Source of the DNA: a virus
Strand: one strand, 5' to 3'
Virus record (IMG/VR): IMGVR_UViG_3300042924_004713
Location: 1 to 64,000 of that record
DNA: 64,000 nt
Under the pieces are notes generated by a model. The model was given only the letters and a program-made list of their open reading frames with translations. It ran no database searches and was not told the origin of the DNA. Below, in pieces: positions 2,072 through 64,000 of the stretch. The first letter of the stretch is position 1. The number at the start of each line of letters is the position of its first letter. The position numbers were made by a program, and so were the translations under genes.

Positions 2072-2606
2072 TCTACAGCCAATTTTTGAATCCTTGGAAT
2101 ACAAGGATCTCGTGGGCATGATGAAACCCACTATTCACATCGATGAATTTAGCAGCAAAATGGGCGATGATGATGATGTGATTGTGATCAGTTTTTATCT
2201 GCGCGACCAGCAAGCCGCCAAGGATCTCATGAACTGGTTTGAAAAAGGCTATGATTTTGTACTAGACGCAGATAGATCGCCAGGTGAAATCAAGCCCAAC
2301 AGATATCTAGTGTACATTGAAATTCTGCGTCGTAGCACCGCAGGTGCCAAGGTGCAAGACCTACTACGAGATCTTGAAACACTCACAGAGTACAAACTAG
2401 ATGATTGGGTCATGCACTACGAGGGCAAGGAACAGCCATTTTCACGTGATGAATTTGATCAGCTGGTGCCGTTGACTCCTGCTGCATACCGCGCCAAAAA
2501 AGAATCAGATCTAAATGAATGGCGTCAGCGAGCTGGACTTGACACCAAACCTATACACGAAAGAGATAGGTTACTAAGACAGTTGCAGAACGCAGCAGGA
2601 ATCTAA
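2064..2606 (+). CDS. Hypothetical phage protein
   Basis: ATG 2064 after AGGAG; begins MSDLQPIFE. Confidence 0.7.
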   Translation: MSDLQPIFESLEYKDLVGMMKPTIHIDEFSSKMGDDDDVIVISFYLRDQQAAKDLMNWFEKGYDFVLDADRSPGEIKPNRYLVYIEILRRSTAGAKVQDLLRDLETLTEYKLDDWVMHYEGKEQPFSRDEFDQLVPLTPAAYRAKKESDLNEWRQRAGLDTKPIHERDRLLRQLQNAAGI

Positions 2607-2608
2607 AA

Positions 2609-2935
2609 ATGCTATTACTTGACTTGATCATGGAACAGACTATCACACAGCCACCTGGTAAAGTTCCAGCAGCTGGTGGAGTACCAGTGCCTCCCACTGT
2701 GGACACATCTGGTGATGCAGCCAAGGCAGTGATAGCCAGTCCAAAGCCTGCGCCCAGCACAGCCAAACCACAGCCCACTGGTCAACCTGCACAACAAGCA
2801 CAACAGGCCAAGGCCGCACAACCAGCTGCTCAATCAGCTGCCGCGGCACAGTCAGCAGCACAGGAAAGTCAGGCCGAACTAGAAGAGCGTGTGATGAAAC
2901 GCCTTCAACAGTTGGCTGGCATGCTAGGTCGTTGA
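2609..2935 (+). CDS. Low-complexity Pro/Ala/Gln-rich protein
   Basis: ORF contiguous with upstream gene; begins MLLLDLIME. Confidence 0.6.
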   Translation: MLLLDLIMEQTITQPPGKVPAAGGVPVPPTVDTSGDAAKAVIASPKPAPSTAKPQPTGQPAQQAQQAKAAQPAAQSAAAAQSAAQESQAELEERVMKRLQQLAGMLGR

Positions 2936-3664
2936 TTTAACATATTCAAAATACAGTCGGCTGTTGCTGTCTTTTTTAAAGGTAGCAAGATGCAGTGCAA
3001 ACTCAGTTTCAAATTGTTTTACTGTGGCAAAATCCCAAGGAAAAATATCTACCCAGGGTCCAGCAGCATGAGCAATGCCTGGATTCACCCGCAGGTACAT
3101 GTGTCCACCCGGCGTCAATAAATTCACACAGTGTGCGATCCGCGCCTGAATATCATCGCGACTGTTGAAATTAATGCTGCCAAGAGCAATGATATGATCA
3201 TGCGATTCAGGAGGCACCTGATATTCTAGAATATCCACTTGATAGTCAGCACAGTTGTTATAGGGATCAATACCTATTAGATTTTGAATTCGGCCTTTGA
3301 ATGGATGATATCCACAGCCTACGTCCAGCACTGACCGTGGATTGTGTTTGTTGATTTCGTCTGCCAGAGCCCAGCCTGTGTAGGTATATTCGTCGGTTCT
3401 AGGTTTCCAGATCTCTCCAAAGAATCTTGCACTGTAACGAGTGTCAAGGTCATGCACAATTTCATTCAGGGTGCCTACAAAATCACAGGAGAGCTGTAGT
3501 TCGCGTTCGATATTGTCTTTGAACTTTTTATATCGTGCAGGAGTCCATGGCAATGTGTGCACCTGTGTGCTTTGGTCAAACCCACTGGCCAAGTTTCGGT
3601 ATCTGGCTAGGCCAAAACTCTGCTGAAGATTTTCCAGTATCAAACGAAAAATTTTGGTATTCAT
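2924..3664 (-). CDS. Class I SAM-dependent methyltransferase with extra N-terminal helical domain
   Basis: VLDVGCG motif I, IGID, LLTPGG. Confidence 0.8.
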   Translation of the reverse strand: MNTKIFRLILENLQQSFGLARYRNLASGFDQSTQVHTLPWTPARYKKFKDNIERELQLSCDFVGTLNEIVHDLDTRYSARFFGEIWKPRTDEYTYTGWALADEINKHNPRSVLDVGCGYHPFKGRIQNLIGIDPYNNCADYQVDILEYQVPPESHDHIIALGSINFNSRDDIQARIAHCVNLLTPGGHMYLRVNPGIAHAAGPWVDIFPWDFATVKQFETEFALHLATFKKDSNSRLYFEYVKSTT

Positions 3665-3756
3665 TGAATTTTTTCTAAATGGACTAAATATTTGTACACA
3701 AAGCCGTAAAAAATTTTATCCCCTTGTGTTTCCACATATATATCCTAGGAGAAATC

Positions 3757-4455
3757 ATGTTAACAGGAAAACAATTTGTTGAAAAAATTCGTGCCGAAAA
3801 CTCAGCTCTGTTTGAGGCCAGTCGTCACAATGTTCGTGCCTACTTTGAAAGCCAGCCCAGCCAGCAAGAACTGGTAGACCATTTTGTTGGTCGCATGGTA
3901 AACGAGCGCATGAACATGGTAGAAATCAGCCAGGCCATTGCTAACCTGCCCGCTGACACTGATCCAGTTGAACTGCAATTGCTAACACAGCAGGCGCATG
4001 ACGAAGCTGTGCATTTCCGCATGGTCAAAGAAGTTATTGAACACATTCAAGGTTCAGAAGTTGATGTTGAAGCAGCCATTGCTCGTGAAACAGCCAAGCC
4101 CACTGCCAAGGGCGCTGGTCTATTGGAAAAATACGGCGCACAAAACGACGAAGCCGCACTGGCAGCATATCAGCTAGTGGCAGAAGGTCGTGCTGAAGCT
4201 GTGTGGAACGAAATGGCAGACTGCATTGAAGATCAATACATTGCCACTCGCTATGCTAAAATTGCTAGAGACGAAGGCTTTCACAGCAAGATTGGTGCAC
4301 GTAAACTGGCTCAATTGGTTGAAAGCGCAGAAGAACAAGCACGTATTGAAAAACTAGTGAGTGCAATGCGTCGTGATCTGTATGACATCAGCTGCCGTAA
4401 CACCACTGCGGCCGAAGCAGGTCGTAAGCTGGTATCAGAAGCCTACGGTTGGTAA
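3757..4455 (+). CDS. Ferritin-like diiron-carboxylate protein
   Basis: Two DExxH motifs (HDEAVH, RDEGFH), each preceded by a helix Glu; SD AGGAG. Confidence 0.8.
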   Translation: MLTGKQFVEKIRAENSALFEASRHNVRAYFESQPSQQELVDHFVGRMVNERMNMVEISQAIANLPADTDPVELQLLTQQAHDEAVHFRMVKEVIEHIQGSEVDVEAAIARETAKPTAKGAGLLEKYGAQNDEAALAAYQLVAEGRAEAVWNEMADCIEDQYIATRYAKIARDEGFHSKIGARKLAQLVESAEEQARIEKLVSAMRRDLYDISCRNTTAAEAGRKLVSEAYGW

Positions 4456-58199: not shown

Positions 58200-59066
58200 A
58201 TGGAAAAGATAACCTATACTGAAATTTTCTACAGCCTACAAGGCGAAGGAATGTATGCTGGCGTGCCCAGCATTTTCTTTCGTACCTATGGTTGTAACTT
58301 TAGATGCCGTAAATTTGGTAGATCACAAGATGAACAGATTGACGGACATAATCCTGAAGTGGTTGAAATCATCAAAAACATTGCACAGTACAATAAATTT
58401 GAAGACCTACCTCTGGTGACCACAGGATGCGATACCTATGCGTCAATCTATCCCGAGTTCAAGCGTTTCAATCAACAAGAAACAGTGTCAACCATTGCTG
58501 ATCAAATCCATGCACTATTGCCTGGTAACGTATGGCAAGATTCACATTTGATCATCACAGGTGGTGAGCCCTTGCTGGCCTATCAACAACTGTATCCGGA
58601 ACTCTTAGAACTGTGTAGAGCCAAGGGACTGCGACATCTTACATTTGAAACCAACGGTACTCAAAAGATCTATCCTGAAGTAGAAGAATATCTGTTTCAA
58701 GAGTTCACAAGACATGGACGCGACTTTGAGAACTTGACATTCAGTGTGAGTCCTAAACTGCCGTGTTCTGGTGAACCGTTTGAACGAGCCATACAACCTG
58801 AAGTTGTGCATCAATACGCATTGTATGGTCGAGTATACTTGAAATTTGTAGTGGCTACTCAGCAAGACGTAGAAGACGCAGAACGTGCTGTGGCCGAGTA
58901 TCGCAAACACAACGTGAACTGTCCAGTGTATCTCATGCCTGTGGGTGGTGTACCACAGGTGTATAACTTGAATACTCAACAGGTTGCACAGCTAGCACTG
59001 GAGAGAGGATGGCGTTACAGTCCAAGGCTACAAGTTGATATTTGGCGCAACGCATGGGGAACGTAA
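58200..59066 (+). CDS. queE: 7-carboxy-7-deazaguanine synthase (radical SAM)
   Basis: EIFYSLQGEG, RTYGCNFRC...GCDT, ITGGEPL, ETNGT, SPK, SPRLQ. Confidence 0.93.
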   Translation: MEKITYTEIFYSLQGEGMYAGVPSIFFRTYGCNFRCRKFGRSQDEQIDGHNPEVVEIIKNIAQYNKFEDLPLVTTGCDTYASIYPEFKRFNQQETVSTIADQIHALLPGNVWQDSHLIITGGEPLLAYQQLYPELLELCRAKGLRHLTFETNGTQKIYPEVEEYLFQEFTRHGRDFENLTFSVSPKLPCSGEPFERAIQPEVVHQYALYGRVYLKFVVATQQDVEDAERAVAEYRKHNVNCPVYLMPVGGVPQVYNLNTQQVAQLALERGWRYSPRLQVDIWRNAWGT

Positions 59067-59209
59067 GCAGTCCTTGTGTGAATATCTGTCGCATGCAAAA
59101 CAACATCTGTATAGGCTGCTTGAGAACATTAGAAGAAATAGCCAATTGGCTTTATTATAGTGATCAAGAGAAACAGGAAATATTACAACAACTGGAGACA
59201 AGAAAATGA
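59054..59209 (+). CDS. DUF1289-like four-Cys protein (51 aa)
   Basis: Not in ORF track; SPCVNICRM...CIGCLRTLEEIANW. Confidence 0.8.
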   Translation: MGNVSSPCVNICRMQNNICIGCLRTLEEIANWLYYSDQEKQEILQQLETRK

Positions 59210-59433
59210 CAGAAACCAAACAACGTACCATTGCTAGAATGGTAAGCTATCGCATCACAGCCTGGCTGTTTACTATCTTCTGGACTTGGTTGTTCACAGA
59301 AGATGTAGCATCTGCCACAACGTTTGCCACTGCCTTGCATATCTTGCTCAGTATTGATTATTACATTCACGAACGTGTATGGCTAAAGATCAAATGGGGC
59401 AAAATAACGGACAAAGATCATGGGACTGTTTGA
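59206..59433 (+). CDS. DUF2061-like small membrane protein
   Basis: ETKQRTIARMVSYR...YYIHERVWLKIKWG. Confidence 0.75.
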   Translation: MTETKQRTIARMVSYRITAWLFTIFWTWLFTEDVASATTFATALHILLSIDYYIHERVWLKIKWGKITDKDHGTV

Positions 59434-59827
59434 TAAATTTTTTAAATCTAAACCAGAAAAGTCAGTGCAACCACGCACTAGCGAGACTGAGCATAGACCA
59501 CCTCCAGCACGTAAAAAAACTGCCAAGGAACTGGCCACTGAACGTGGAGAAGCCTATGTTGGTATTGTGAGTTTTGATCTTAATGCTGACGACATCAACT
59601 CAGGCAGTTTTGAACTAGAGTGGAATGACAAATTTATCACAAATCTTGTGCGTGCTGGATATCAAATGAAGCCAAACGAGCCCGAAGACGTGATTGTGGA
59701 TCGTTGGTTTCAAAACATCTGCCGAAATGTTGTAATGGAAACCTGGGAACAGGAACAAGCAATGCGTGCCTCGGGTATCTATGTGCGTACCACTGACATA
59801 GGCAATGGTCGCAGCGAGGTTTCATGA
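59420..59827 (+). CDS. Hypothetical phage protein
   Basis: ORF. Confidence 0.7.
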   Translation: MGLFDKFFKSKPEKSVQPRTSETEHRPPPARKKTAKELATERGEAYVGIVSFDLNADDINSGSFELEWNDKFITNLVRAGYQMKPNEPEDVIVDRWFQNICRNVVMETWEQEQAMRASGIYVRTTDIGNGRSEVS

Positions 59828-60015
59828 TTGAACGTGAACGCATAAACTATCTACTACTGAGTGCGCTGGGCAGTGCAGAACTAGTTTACCAATGGTGGCA
59901 TTCCAGAAATGCGGCTTTTGAATACGCTACACCTGAAGAGATCTGGCAGGAAGCACCTGAACGTGTGGCCAATTATGTGATACGAGCAGTAAACGTGGGA
60001 GGAGATTACTTTTGA
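59824..60015 (+). CDS. Small protein resembling the Xre/MbcA/ParS antitoxin C-terminal domain
   Basis: LGSAELVYQWWHSRNAAFEYATPEE pattern. Confidence 0.5.
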   Translation: MIERERINYLLLSALGSAELVYQWWHSRNAAFEYATPEEIWQEAPERVANYVIRAVNVGGDYF

Positions 60016-60485
60016 TTTTTAATCATATCAAAACTCTCAAAGAACAAGGCAAGCGTATAGGCATAACTTTTAGCACGTTTGATCTGTTGCATGCAGGGCA
60101 TGTGGCCATGTTGGCCGAAGCTAAGAATCACTGTGACTATTTGATTGCAGGTCTACAAACTGATCCAACCATTGATAGACCTGATACTAAAAATGCTCCA
60201 ATACAAAGCATTGTTGAGCGGCAGATTCAACTAGCTGCCTGTAGATATGTTGACGAAGTCGTGGTGTATCAAACCGAACAGGATCTAATTGATCTGCTGC
60301 TGATCTTGCCCTTGGATGTTAGAATACTGGGTGTAGAATACAAAGAACGTTCGTTCACTGGTGACAACGAATGTTATAATCGTGGTATCGAACTGGTTTT
60401 CAATTCTAGAGATCATAGTTTTTCCAGTTCCAGTCTTCGCAAACGTGTGATACATGCCGAAACACAACGTGCTCTGCAGTCATGA
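60012..60485 (+). CDS. Cytidylyltransferase (TagD/RfaE-like)
   Basis: STFDLLHAGH, YVDEV, FSSSSLR. Confidence 0.9.
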   Translation: MIFNHIKTLKEQGKRIGITFSTFDLLHAGHVAMLAEAKNHCDYLIAGLQTDPTIDRPDTKNAPIQSIVERQIQLAACRYVDEVVVYQTEQDLIDLLLILPLDVRILGVEYKERSFTGDNECYNRGIELVFNSRDHSFSSSSLRKRVIHAETQRALQS

Positions 60486-60691
60486 GACGATACTTCGCTA
60501 GCACATTCAATATCACTGACACTGATATGGATATCATGGAGCACATACGTTGGTGCAGAAATAATCTAGGTGAACGTGGCCGTGACTGGGACTTCAGCGG
60601 CAATAACCGACGAGTACAGGTCTGGGTCAGAGAAGGGTCGCCTCAATTTACTTTTTACGAACTAAAATATGGTAGTCTACGTCAACGGTGA
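60482..60691 (+). CDS. Hypothetical protein
   Basis: ATGA-coupled. Confidence 0.6.
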   Translation: MRRYFASTFNITDTDMDIMEHIRWCRNNLGERGRDWDFSGNNRRVQVWVREGSPQFTFYELKYGSLRQR

Positions 60692-61367
60692 TAGTCATGC
60701 TGCTGCGGCCGAAGCAGCGGTGCCATTTGGTTGGGCCGAAGACGATCCCTTTTATTATGGCATGGGCAAAAGACCACACCCTGAAAATGAACGTGTGAGT
60801 TTTGGTTGTGAGATAGCCAATCGTCTACATGCTATCTTGGACATAGATGCACAGTCCGGAGCCAGTAATGCCAGAATCATGCGCACCACTAGGCAATGGT
60901 TGGATCATGCACAACCCAGTGCCAAAGACCTTGTGATAATTCAATGGAGTACCTGGGAACGCGAAGAGTGGTTGATTGATGGTGAATACTACCAAGTGGG
61001 CGCATCAGGCACTGATTCAGTTCCCGAATCACACCAAGACCAATACAAAGAATTTGTTCAAAAGGTGGATTGGGTGGCCTGTAGAAATCATTGGCACCGA
61101 GCTATATGGAATCTACACTGTGAACTAGCCGAGCAAAAAGTTCCACATTTATTCTTCAACGGTAATAACCATTTCCTAGGCGAAACTGAGTTGTTGGACT
61201 GGCAACACAGTTTTATTGGGCCCTATGATCCAAACAGCACCTACGATGCCCTACTGCGCCTAAATGGTTACAAACCTGTTAACAGTCACAGCTGGCATTT
61301 TGGAGCAGATGCCCATTGCTTTTGGGCGGATTATGTGCTACAATATGTTCACGATCATATACTCTAG
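60669..61367 (+). CDS. SGNH-hydrolase-like protein
   Basis: VNGDSH, GASNARI, IQWS, terminal HFGADAH. Confidence 0.6.
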   Translation: MVVYVNGDSHAAAAEAAVPFGWAEDDPFYYGMGKRPHPENERVSFGCEIANRLHAILDIDAQSGASNARIMRTTRQWLDHAQPSAKDLVIIQWSTWEREEWLIDGEYYQVGASGTDSVPESHQDQYKEFVQKVDWVACRNHWHRAIWNLHCELAEQKVPHLFFNGNNHFLGETELLDWQHSFIGPYDPNSTYDALLRLNGYKPVNSHSWHFGADAHCFWADYVLQYVHDHIL

Positions 61368-61374
61368 GTGACCT

Positions 61375-62397
61375 ATGCATTACTTGCTGATTGACACTGC
61401 CAACATGTTTTTCCGAGCTCGACATGTGGCACACAGAGCCAGTTCCACTGAAGAAAAAGTTGGTTATGCTCTACACATCACCCTGGCTGCTATCAATAAG
61501 GTAGCCAAGAAATTCAATGCTGATCACGTGGTGTTTGCATTGGAGGGACGGTCGTGGCGCAAAGACTTCTACGCTCCCTACAAGAAAAACCGTGCTGTGG
61601 CTCGTGCTGCGCTCACAGAAGCAGAAGCCGAAGAAGATCGAGTGTTTTGGGAAACCTATGATCACTTTACTAAATACCTAGAGCAGGGCACAAACTGTTC
61701 GGTCATACGTCACCCTGAAGCAGAAGCTGACGATATCATTGCTAGATGGATACATCTGCATCCCCAGGATCATCACACTATTGTCAGCAGTGACACTGAT
61801 TTTGTGCAACTCATCGCCCCTAATGTAAATCAATTCAATGGTATTCAAGACGAGTTGATCACACTAGAAGGTGTGTTTGATGCACGTGGTCGTGAAGTCG
61901 TAGATAAAAAAACCAAACAACCTAAACGTATCCCCGACCCAGAGTGGTTATTGTTTGAAAAATGCATGCGAGGCGATGCATCTGACAATGTGTTCTCTGC
62001 ATATCCAGGTGTTCGTGTCAAGGGCACAAAAAACAAAGTAGGATTAATGGAAGCATTTGAAGATCGCCATGCACGTGGTTATGCATGGAACAATCTGATG
62101 TTGCAAAGGTGGACAGATCATGATGGTCAAGAACATCGTGTGTTAGATGACTACATTCGCAACAAACAACTTATTGACCTCACAGCTCAGCCTGACGAAG
62201 TCAAGTATAAAGTTGACTCAGCTATTCGTGAACAGGTTTCGCACAAAGACATTGGACAAGTAGGTGTGCGATTCATGAAGTTCTGTGGTAAGTTTGATTT
62301 GCAAAAAATCAGCGAACAGGCAGAACAGTATGCACAATGGTTGAATACAATATACCAAGGAGTATTGAATGATAATAGCCAAGCCCGTAGTACCTGA
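61375..62397 (+). CDS. 5'-3' exonuclease / T4 RNase H-like (FEN family)
   Basis: LLIDTAN, SWRK..YK.NR, EADD, SSDTDF.QL, GDASDN. Confidence 0.92.
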   Translation: MHYLLIDTANMFFRARHVAHRASSTEEKVGYALHITLAAINKVAKKFNADHVVFALEGRSWRKDFYAPYKKNRAVARAALTEAEAEEDRVFWETYDHFTKYLEQGTNCSVIRHPEAEADDIIARWIHLHPQDHHTIVSSDTDFVQLIAPNVNQFNGIQDELITLEGVFDARGREVVDKKTKQPKRIPDPEWLLFEKCMRGDASDNVFSAYPGVRVKGTKNKVGLMEAFEDRHARGYAWNNLMLQRWTDHDGQEHRVLDDYIRNKQLIDLTAQPDEVKYKVDSAIREQVSHKDIGQVGVRFMKFCGKFDLQKISEQAEQYAQWLNTIYQGVLNDNSQARST

Positions 62398-63792: not shown

Positions 63793-63821
63793 TTGACCTG
63801 GTATAAATAAAAATGTAAAAT
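63793..63821 (+). promoter_or_regulatory. Sigma70-like promoter with nested T4-type late motif
   Basis: TTGACC-17 nt-TAAAAT; TATAAATA at 63802-63809 inside the spacer. Confidence 0.7.
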
Positions 63822-63828
63822 AGATGCT

Positions 63829-63954
63829 ATGATGACTTCAATACTTTCATTATCCGCGATGCACAAATGTCCCACACAGAGTGGCCTATCAACATGGCTC
63901 CAGTTTGGGTATACCCGTGCGATCAAGATTAATGATAGTGGGGGGTCCAAGTAG
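63829..63954 (+). CDS. Putative leader peptide (41 aa)
   Basis: Not in ORF track; MMTSILSLSAMHKCPTQSGLSTWLQFGYTRAIKINDSGGSK; ATG 7 nt after the -10 box; stop lies inside a hairpin. Confidence 0.5.
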   Translation: MMTSILSLSAMHKCPTQSGLSTWLQFGYTRAIKINDSGGSK

Positions 63955-63990
63955 ATCAAGCATCAAGCAACATGCGTCTACTAGGGCCCT
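63942..63990 (+). promoter_or_regulatory. Hairpin overlapping the leader stop codon (antiterminator-like)
   Basis: GGGGTCC/GGGCCCT, AGTAGA/TCTACT and GCAT/ATGC pairings. Confidence 0.55.
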
Positions 63991-64000
63991 GGAAGTAAAA

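Follow-up and report, generated by a model that had tools for sequence, protein, structure and literature searches.

A candidate translation-sensing attenuator at the head of the tRNA island of giant phages

A compact RNA unit of about 230 bases stands at the head of a tRNA island in uncultured giant phages, and in our judgement it is probably a ribosome-mediated (leader-peptide) transcription attenuator that senses translation in general and heads an island of tRNA and small-RNA genes. From its anatomy and conservation, its two mutually exclusive helices, the placement of its stop codon and the amino-acid coverage of its leader, all of which are described below, we infer that the open reading frame is translated, that read-through of the terminator is regulated and what the signal may be. 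Leaderless translation in the host is assumed throughout.

The leader unit, its relatives and the island downstream

The window, i.e. the whole 64,000-base stretch that was analysed, corresponds to positions 1-64000 of a 166,408-base virus record (G000) from a giant lake phage, and the record is estimated to hold about half of a giant phage genome. For the sequence past the window the following 14 kb were used (L002; window coordinate = L002 coordinate + 63000).

The unit occurs as a single copy in the window phage, and all its parts lie on the plus strand. It begins with a sigma-70-type promoter (63793-63821; -35 box TTGACC at 63793-63798, 17-base spacer, -10 box TAAAAT at 63816-63821) that matches the consensus at 10 of 12 positions. 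The leader ORF of 41 codons and a TAG stop (63829-63954) starts 7 bases past the -10 box, so no Shine-Dalgarno sequence is possible in a transcript from this promoter. Segment 1 (63834-63839) is the predicted 5' partner of segment 2 (63942-63948, a G-run followed by UCC), and their pairing, which closes a rod-like fold over the entire ORF, appears in the single-sequence fold, in the consensus fold and in the terminator-state folds of 14 variants. Segment 2 can pair alternatively with segment 3 (63984-63990). The latter pairing extends an upper hairpin (63950-63982; arms 63950-63956 and 63976-63982) to a long one, in which 63942-63956 pairs with 63976-63990, and the stop codon (63952-63954) sits in the 5' arm. 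Segment 3 is also part of the 5' arm of an intrinsic terminator (5' arm 63986-63993, nine-base loop, 3' arm 64003-64010, T tract 64011-64022), the shared stretch being 2-4 bases long; the window edge at 64000 falls in the terminator loop. The transcript from 63829 to the T tract is predicted to fold as a rod, with the start and the end of the ORF paired, followed by the hairpin and the terminator (-63.7 kcal/mol; z = -3.5 against shuffled sequences). The initial annotation, made from the letters of the window, had described the promoter, the leaderless ORF and the hairpin, all of which are present, and the half-stem that it had noticed at the window edge is indeed completed by the complementary arm and the T tract past position 64000.

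Uncultured giant phages, mostly from freshwater, yielded about 25 sequence variants of the unit, which represent at least 13 lineages. They were gathered by the upstream neighbour gene, by DNA patterns and by homologues of the 51-codon gene that follows the unit. One relative (G005) is represented by its complete genome of 355 kb, which has terminal repeats, and one relative carries a second, diverged copy of the unit (L027b). Every variant has a sigma-70-type promoter with both boxes kept and a start codon 6-9 bases past the -10 box, from which it follows that the mRNA should be leaderless or nearly so. The leader frame is 33, 36 or 38-42 codons long and always in frame, the stop codon (UAG, UGA or UAA) always falls within the 5' arm of the long hairpin, and the 3' arm of the hairpin always overlaps the terminator by 2-4 bases. 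In other words, the frame, its approximate length and the stop position are kept among homologous leaders, as the initial annotation had anticipated. A T4-type late promoter (TATAAATA in the spacer) was also considered and rejected, as the motif is absent from L027, L031, L045 and L051.

Wherever the available downstream sequence suffices, a tRNA block on the same strand lies 0.1-2 kb 3' of the unit, and the genes upstream of the unit vary by lineage. This assigns the unit to the head of the tRNA island. In L032 the gene directly upstream (2307-3818, minus strand) encodes a 503-residue protein which, from the look of its sequence, we take to be AhpF-like (alkyl hydroperoxide reductase subunit F); such a gene is unusual for a phage.

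Among isolated phages, searches by DNA gave no match, and a pattern scan of 185,579 prokaryote genomes returned chance matches only, none with both promoter and terminator. Rfam 15 (including T-box, 6S, tmRNA and known leaders) had no match at E <= 1 over 63793-64025, and Rfam on the 15 kb around the unit gave none at the unit itself. The closest isolate by the RNaseH-like gene is the Pseudomonas jumbo phage PA5oct (53% identity). In the window a QueE-like radical SAM gene and an RNaseH/flap-endonuclease gene (58200-62397) are spaced by about 2.3 kb, and the same arrangement is seen in PA5oct (227441-230331); the gene pair points to a distant kinship with the PA5oct phage family. A match of PA5oct to the model of the unit was rejected as a terminator look-alike lying across coding genes, and PA5oct is without a homologue of the unit.

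In the window phage a predicted gene of 51 codons without a promoter of its own (64032-64187, plus strand; L002 1032-1187) begins ten bases past the T tract. Its product forms 17 clusters of 74-98% identity, with homologues in G005 and G006 too, and its pN/pS is 0.18-0.39 with a third-position excess. The predicted fold consists of just two helices (pLDDT 82); no protein family was matched, and the protein atlas search was also empty. A gene for a small helical protein starts about 10-20 bases past the T tract in most lineages. Downstream of the 51-codon gene lies a second conserved RNA of about 110-130 bases (64190-64320; L002 1190-1320) with the invariant blocks AACGAGG and ACGGGCGG and no Rfam match. 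In L015, L028, L031, L032, L067 and L027b this RNA comes directly after the leader terminator, and no conserved -10 box was found between the two. More generally, there is no conserved promoter between the T tract and the next gene or RNA.

The island itself holds 28 tRNA genes on the same strand (64719-70545), followed by a two-piece (permuted) tmRNA (76184-76612; L002 13184-13612) with the tag ANAANDEVFALAA; the initial annotation had predicted tRNA or translation genes at this place. The tmRNA is of the betaproteobacterial type, which hints at a betaproteobacterium as host. The array opens with the tRNAs for Lys, Met, Glu, Asp, Tyr and Asn, and several of these tRNAs are nuclease targets. 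No terminator was found between the leader unit and the tRNA array. The second RNA and the tRNA genes of the window phage have internal consensus promoters at 64160, 64320 and 64876, so read-through would add to tRNA transcription and not be its sole source; it is strictly needed only for the 51-codon gene in this phage. In L015, L028, L031, L032 and L067, where no conserved promoter precedes the second RNA, that RNA would depend on read-through as well.

Near-consensus promoters with a GGTTGACC start and a TATAAT-like end were noted at 64320, 64876, 71313, 83236, 83592, 84056, 85894 and 88606, and promoters of this type (range 63793-88606) cluster within the tRNA island and beyond it. The promoter at 64320 is followed by a tRNA-shaped RNA with a closing stem of about 23 pairs (about 64357-64470; L002 1357-1470) that is called neither by ARAGORN nor by the Rfam tRNA model. 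A similar long stem on a CCATATTGAA motif occurs between tRNA genes of L015 and may be a processing site.

Alternative helices, stop codon and read-through

The position of the stop codon relative to the hairpin was measured in 15 variants. Irrespective of which stop codon is used, it begins 8-15 bases into the long helix, counted from the 5' end, and further lineages likewise have it within the hairpin's 5' arm, so that a ribosome terminating there would cover this arm. The stop codon is UGA in L044 and UAA in L051 and L027b, and in L044 a frameshift near the end of the ORF is offset by a new stop two bases further on. In L045, L051, L074 and L027b the hairpin arms are swapped for different sequences that are still complementary.

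Base-pair conservation was assessed by folds constrained for each sequence and by the energies of cognate and non-cognate duplexes, since the model-fitted alignment (A3) was too poor for pair counts in the divergent variants. Segment 2 consists of a G-run, then U and a few bases, and segment 3 ends in CC or CCC, which is at the same time the start of the terminator 5' arm. Covariation is seen between segments 2 and 3: cognate duplexes have a mean energy of -10.8 kcal/mol and non-cognate ones -8.1, and in three divergent types segment 2:3 reaches -9.5 to -12.2 with its own partner against about -6 kcal/mol with partners of the majority type. The covariation of segments 1 and 2 is weak (cognate -6.2, non-cognate -5.2 kcal/mol). 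The terminator stem covaries in other lineages, in four versions. The 2:3 helix and the terminator are thus two mutually exclusive structures, both covarying and of nearly equal energy, which supports the terminator/antiterminator design that the initial annotation had proposed.

With segment 2 free, 16 of 17 variants show an energy gap of -1.3 to +3.1 kcal/mol between antiterminator and terminator, and five further lineages one of -4.7 to +1.9 kcal/mol. In the full RNA, in which segment 1 is able to take segment 2, the terminator is favoured by 1-8.4 kcal/mol in 15 of the 17. The window copy, with a full-length gap of +8.4 kcal/mol, is the most terminator-biased of the family. Other strong terminators of the same phages hold out better against such competition, with a median of +5.2; the median of the family is 2.0 (p = 0.004; n = 13 and 7, small and related samples).

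The effect of a ribosome was modelled at equilibrium. A ribosome at the stop codon gives a terminator probability of 1.0 in 12 of 12 variants. One held within about the first ten codons lowers the terminator probability in half of them (6/12), the window copy being unaffected; in that copy the terminator state wins at every modelled ribosome position. Switching was predicted only for stalls at about codons 2-10, plus codons 28-34 in some homologues. By this model it is not obvious that stalling would be sensed at each of the 20 amino acids, and ribosomes queued behind the stalled one could widen the effective range. The initial annotation had suggested that stalling at any depleted or cleaved tRNA would switch the downstream genes on; in the model only some of the stalls would do so.

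The proposed course of events is as follows. Host RNA polymerase would start at or next to the A of the start codon and produce a leaderless mRNA. If no ribosome engages, segment 1 would pair with segment 2 and the rod would close over the ORF, leaving segment 3 free for the terminator, and an RNA of about 190 bases would be released. If a ribosome translates quickly to the stop, it would cover segment 2 and the 5' arm of the hairpin, the terminator would form and transcription would again end. A ribosome that has started but lags or stalls would cover segment 1 or unwind the rod, and segment 2 would be free to pair with segment 3, lengthening the hairpin downward. This pairing would take away 2-4 of the basal pairs of the terminator beside the T tract, and the polymerase would read on into the small helical-protein gene, the second conserved RNA and the tRNA genes.

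Some of the same observations can be read in another way, namely that the unit is a stand-alone dual-function gene which makes a structured RNA of about 190 bases and a micro-peptide, with a constitutive terminator and basal leak-through into the genes downstream, the alternative helix serving the stability of the RNA or its action in trans and not the control of termination. The unit does have its own strong promoter and a strong terminator, its rod-like fold is conserved and constraint is stronger on its nucleotides than on the peptide; the terminator wins throughout in the window copy, and the tRNA genes are served by internal promoters. A terminated attenuator RNA that acts in trans is reported in the case of rnTrpL (PMC6614838). 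We nevertheless consider this unlikely. A stop position that is kept while the identity of the stop and the sequence of the arm change would be left unexplained, and so would two covarying, exclusive helices balanced within about 2 kcal/mol, the promoterless genes abutting the T tract and the near-complete coverage of the 20 amino acids.

Reading frame and amino-acid coverage of the leader

In ten lineages with 30-65% nucleotide identity the leader frame is open from the start codon to the hairpin, and frames 2 and 3 of the same sequences contain 1-5 stops. Under shuffling, the probability of an open frame is 0.08-0.14 per lineage; the product is 5e-11, an optimistic figure as the lineages are related. 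The pairwise pN/pS of the leader is 0.4-1.2, and the changes are spread evenly over codon positions with no third-position excess. The two flanking genes have a pN/pS of 0.15-0.39 and a clear third-position excess. The pS of the leader is about half that of the flanking genes, i.e. its synonymous sites are about twice as conserved. Taken together, the open frame, the pN/pS values and the low pS indicate that selection keeps the frame and the RNA sequence and not the peptide.

This pattern bears on the idea that the ORF is an ordinary small protein gene, whose 41-residue product would be functional (e.g. a fast-evolving host-takeover or anti-defence peptide) and whose RNA structure would stabilise the mRNA. 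The frame is open in all lineages and some residues recur: an N-terminal MMT, a Trp, a Tyr-x-Arg and an Asn-Ser-Asp stretch. However, the substitution pattern just described speaks against it, no match to the leader peptide was found among 5.8 billion proteins (predicted ones included), in Pfam or in PHROGs, and rare residues such as Cys are kept at shifting positions. The features of a type I toxin were not found either; the leader peptides are polar and varied and have no hydrophobic span. We regard a protein-coding role of this kind as improbable.

Slightly less probable still is an attenuator for a specific signal. In one form of it a small molecule would arrest the nascent peptide at the stop, TnaC and SpeFL being precedents, and in the other a CUA-anticodon tRNA would read through UAG. 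The best conserved region of the peptide is its C-terminal part, which would fit an arrest peptide, but the synonymous sites of these C-terminal codons are conserved too and the codons are paired within the rod. As to the second form, the phage has a tRNA with a CUA anticodon (165074-165147, minus strand; called Pyl by ARAGORN), and TAG is its least used stop codon (11 of 96 long ORFs). Amber-suppressor read-through was rejected for the varying identity of the stop (UGA and UAA in the three variants named above) and for an in-frame extension that is not conserved, the next stop coming after 1, 4, 9 or more than 20 codons. The CUA-anticodon tRNA is also present in the 355 kb relative (L077 2226-2299), and the phages carrying it use the standard code otherwise.

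Our recount agrees with the initial annotation that the window leader uses 29 different codons and 18 amino acids (E and V missing); Ile is written with three codons and Leu with four, and W, C, H, F and Y occur once each. That annotation had also held such diversity to be not unusual in a single leader, and it is in fact ordinary (P = 0.29 for codons and 0.23 for amino acids). The family as a whole gives another picture. Leaders of 33-42 residues contain 18-20 kinds of amino acids, many of them all 20, where the proteins of the window phage would predict 16.0-16.4 (sd 1.7) and nucleotide shuffles with the frame left open 16.6-17.2 (sd 1.3). Combined by Fisher's method over 13 lineage representatives, the excess has p = 3e-6, again optimistic given that the lineages are related. 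The diversity of homologous leaders, which the initial annotation had named as a check, is thus well above expectation.

High coverage persists in variants with only 30-50% of their bases in common. The leaders are enriched in the rare residues Cys, Trp, His and Met and depleted in the common Asp, Glu, Ala and Val, and Cys is retained although its position shifts. By comparison, the neighbouring 51-residue protein has only 15 kinds of amino acids (hand count). As a rule a single leader represents nearly every amino acid, and the set of tRNAs behind it is near-complete. The exception is L027b, with 16 kinds and without Cys, Glu, His and Tyr; the tRNA block between both copies serves seven amino acids, among them these four. 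A matching of the leader to the tRNA block that follows it was considered for G005 and rejected: its leader contains all 17 served amino acids plus the unserved Gly and Val, and the share of block-served residues is about that of chance by a rough estimate, not a computed one.

Since nearly all 20 amino acids are present and no single residue forms a run, the signal is most likely the general speed of decoding, i.e. a shortage of or damage to any tRNA, or general translation stress. A stronger version would make the leader a test strip for all amino acids, on which the ribosome is slowed when any tRNA is short, cleaved or inactivated, with the effect that transcription of the near-complete phage tRNA set and its companion genes rises. 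We put this forward as a possibility, though on balance a doubtful one. The slowing on the leader might, for example, be brought about by anticodon nucleases of the host during infection, and if the test-strip reading is true, the unit would be part of an inducible counter-defence and translation-rescue circuit.

Comparison with known systems

Classical attenuators (trpL, hisL, leuL, thrL, pheL and the ilv leaders) have a run of control codons and a Shine-Dalgarno sequence and precede biosynthetic genes. The phage unit resembles them in its promoter-proximal ORF, in its 2:3 and 3:4 segments with an intrinsic terminator and a predicted 1:2 pairing, in a stop codon so placed that a terminating ribosome would block the antiterminator, and in the expectation that absence of translation leads to termination. 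It differs in that there is neither a run of control codons, the trait of classical amino-acid operons, nor a Shine-Dalgarno sequence, and in that the genes downstream are not biosynthetic. Furthermore, the predicted 1:2 pairing of the phage unit is a rod over the whole ORF, and its antiterminator and terminator overlap by only 2-4 bases.

A terminated leader can itself be a stable, structured RNA that encodes a peptide, as reported for rnTrpL and its peptide peTrpL (PMC6614838, PMC7968998). The likeness to these and to other dual-function RNAs (PMC12612679) lies in a terminated RNA that encodes a peptide, and a role in trans is possible for the phage unit as well.

The abstracts of several studies present phage tRNAs as a counter-defence against host systems that cleave tRNAs (PMC10264068, PMC11464382, PMC11555353). 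Such cleavage would give a phage a reason to sense tRNA damage and to supply tRNAs, and the same abstracts describe no sensing or regulated expression of phage tRNA genes. In our literature search no published description of this kind of control before phage tRNA genes came up. These genes are now viewed as a counter-measure to tRNA-cutting defences, and their control is hardly known. If the leader does probe the decoding of the 20 amino acids, it would mean that phages monitor the host translation machinery and respond to it, and that leader-peptide attenuation extends from single amino acids to the entire code. If it works as proposed, the unit could be used as a general sensor of translation stress, which is easily testable with a reporter.

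Among published systems the closest functional analogue is PA5471.1/armZ of P. aeruginosa, in which full translation of the leader leads to termination, and stalling refolds the RNA and allows read-through; the system answers to disturbances of translation in general, ribosome-targeting drugs and loss of the tRNA CCA-adding enzyme among them, and not to one amino acid (PMC13041342). Both systems have a short leader ORF followed by the logic of a 3:4 terminator. PA5471.1/armZ differs in being chromosomal and in controlling a regulator of an efflux pump, and it has no sequence likeness to the phage unit, which is leaderless, lies before a tRNA island and a small helical-protein gene and has a peptide with nearly all of the 20 amino acids. 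The phage unit is attenuator-like but not of the classical single-amino-acid type; it is nearer to the PA5471.1 type.
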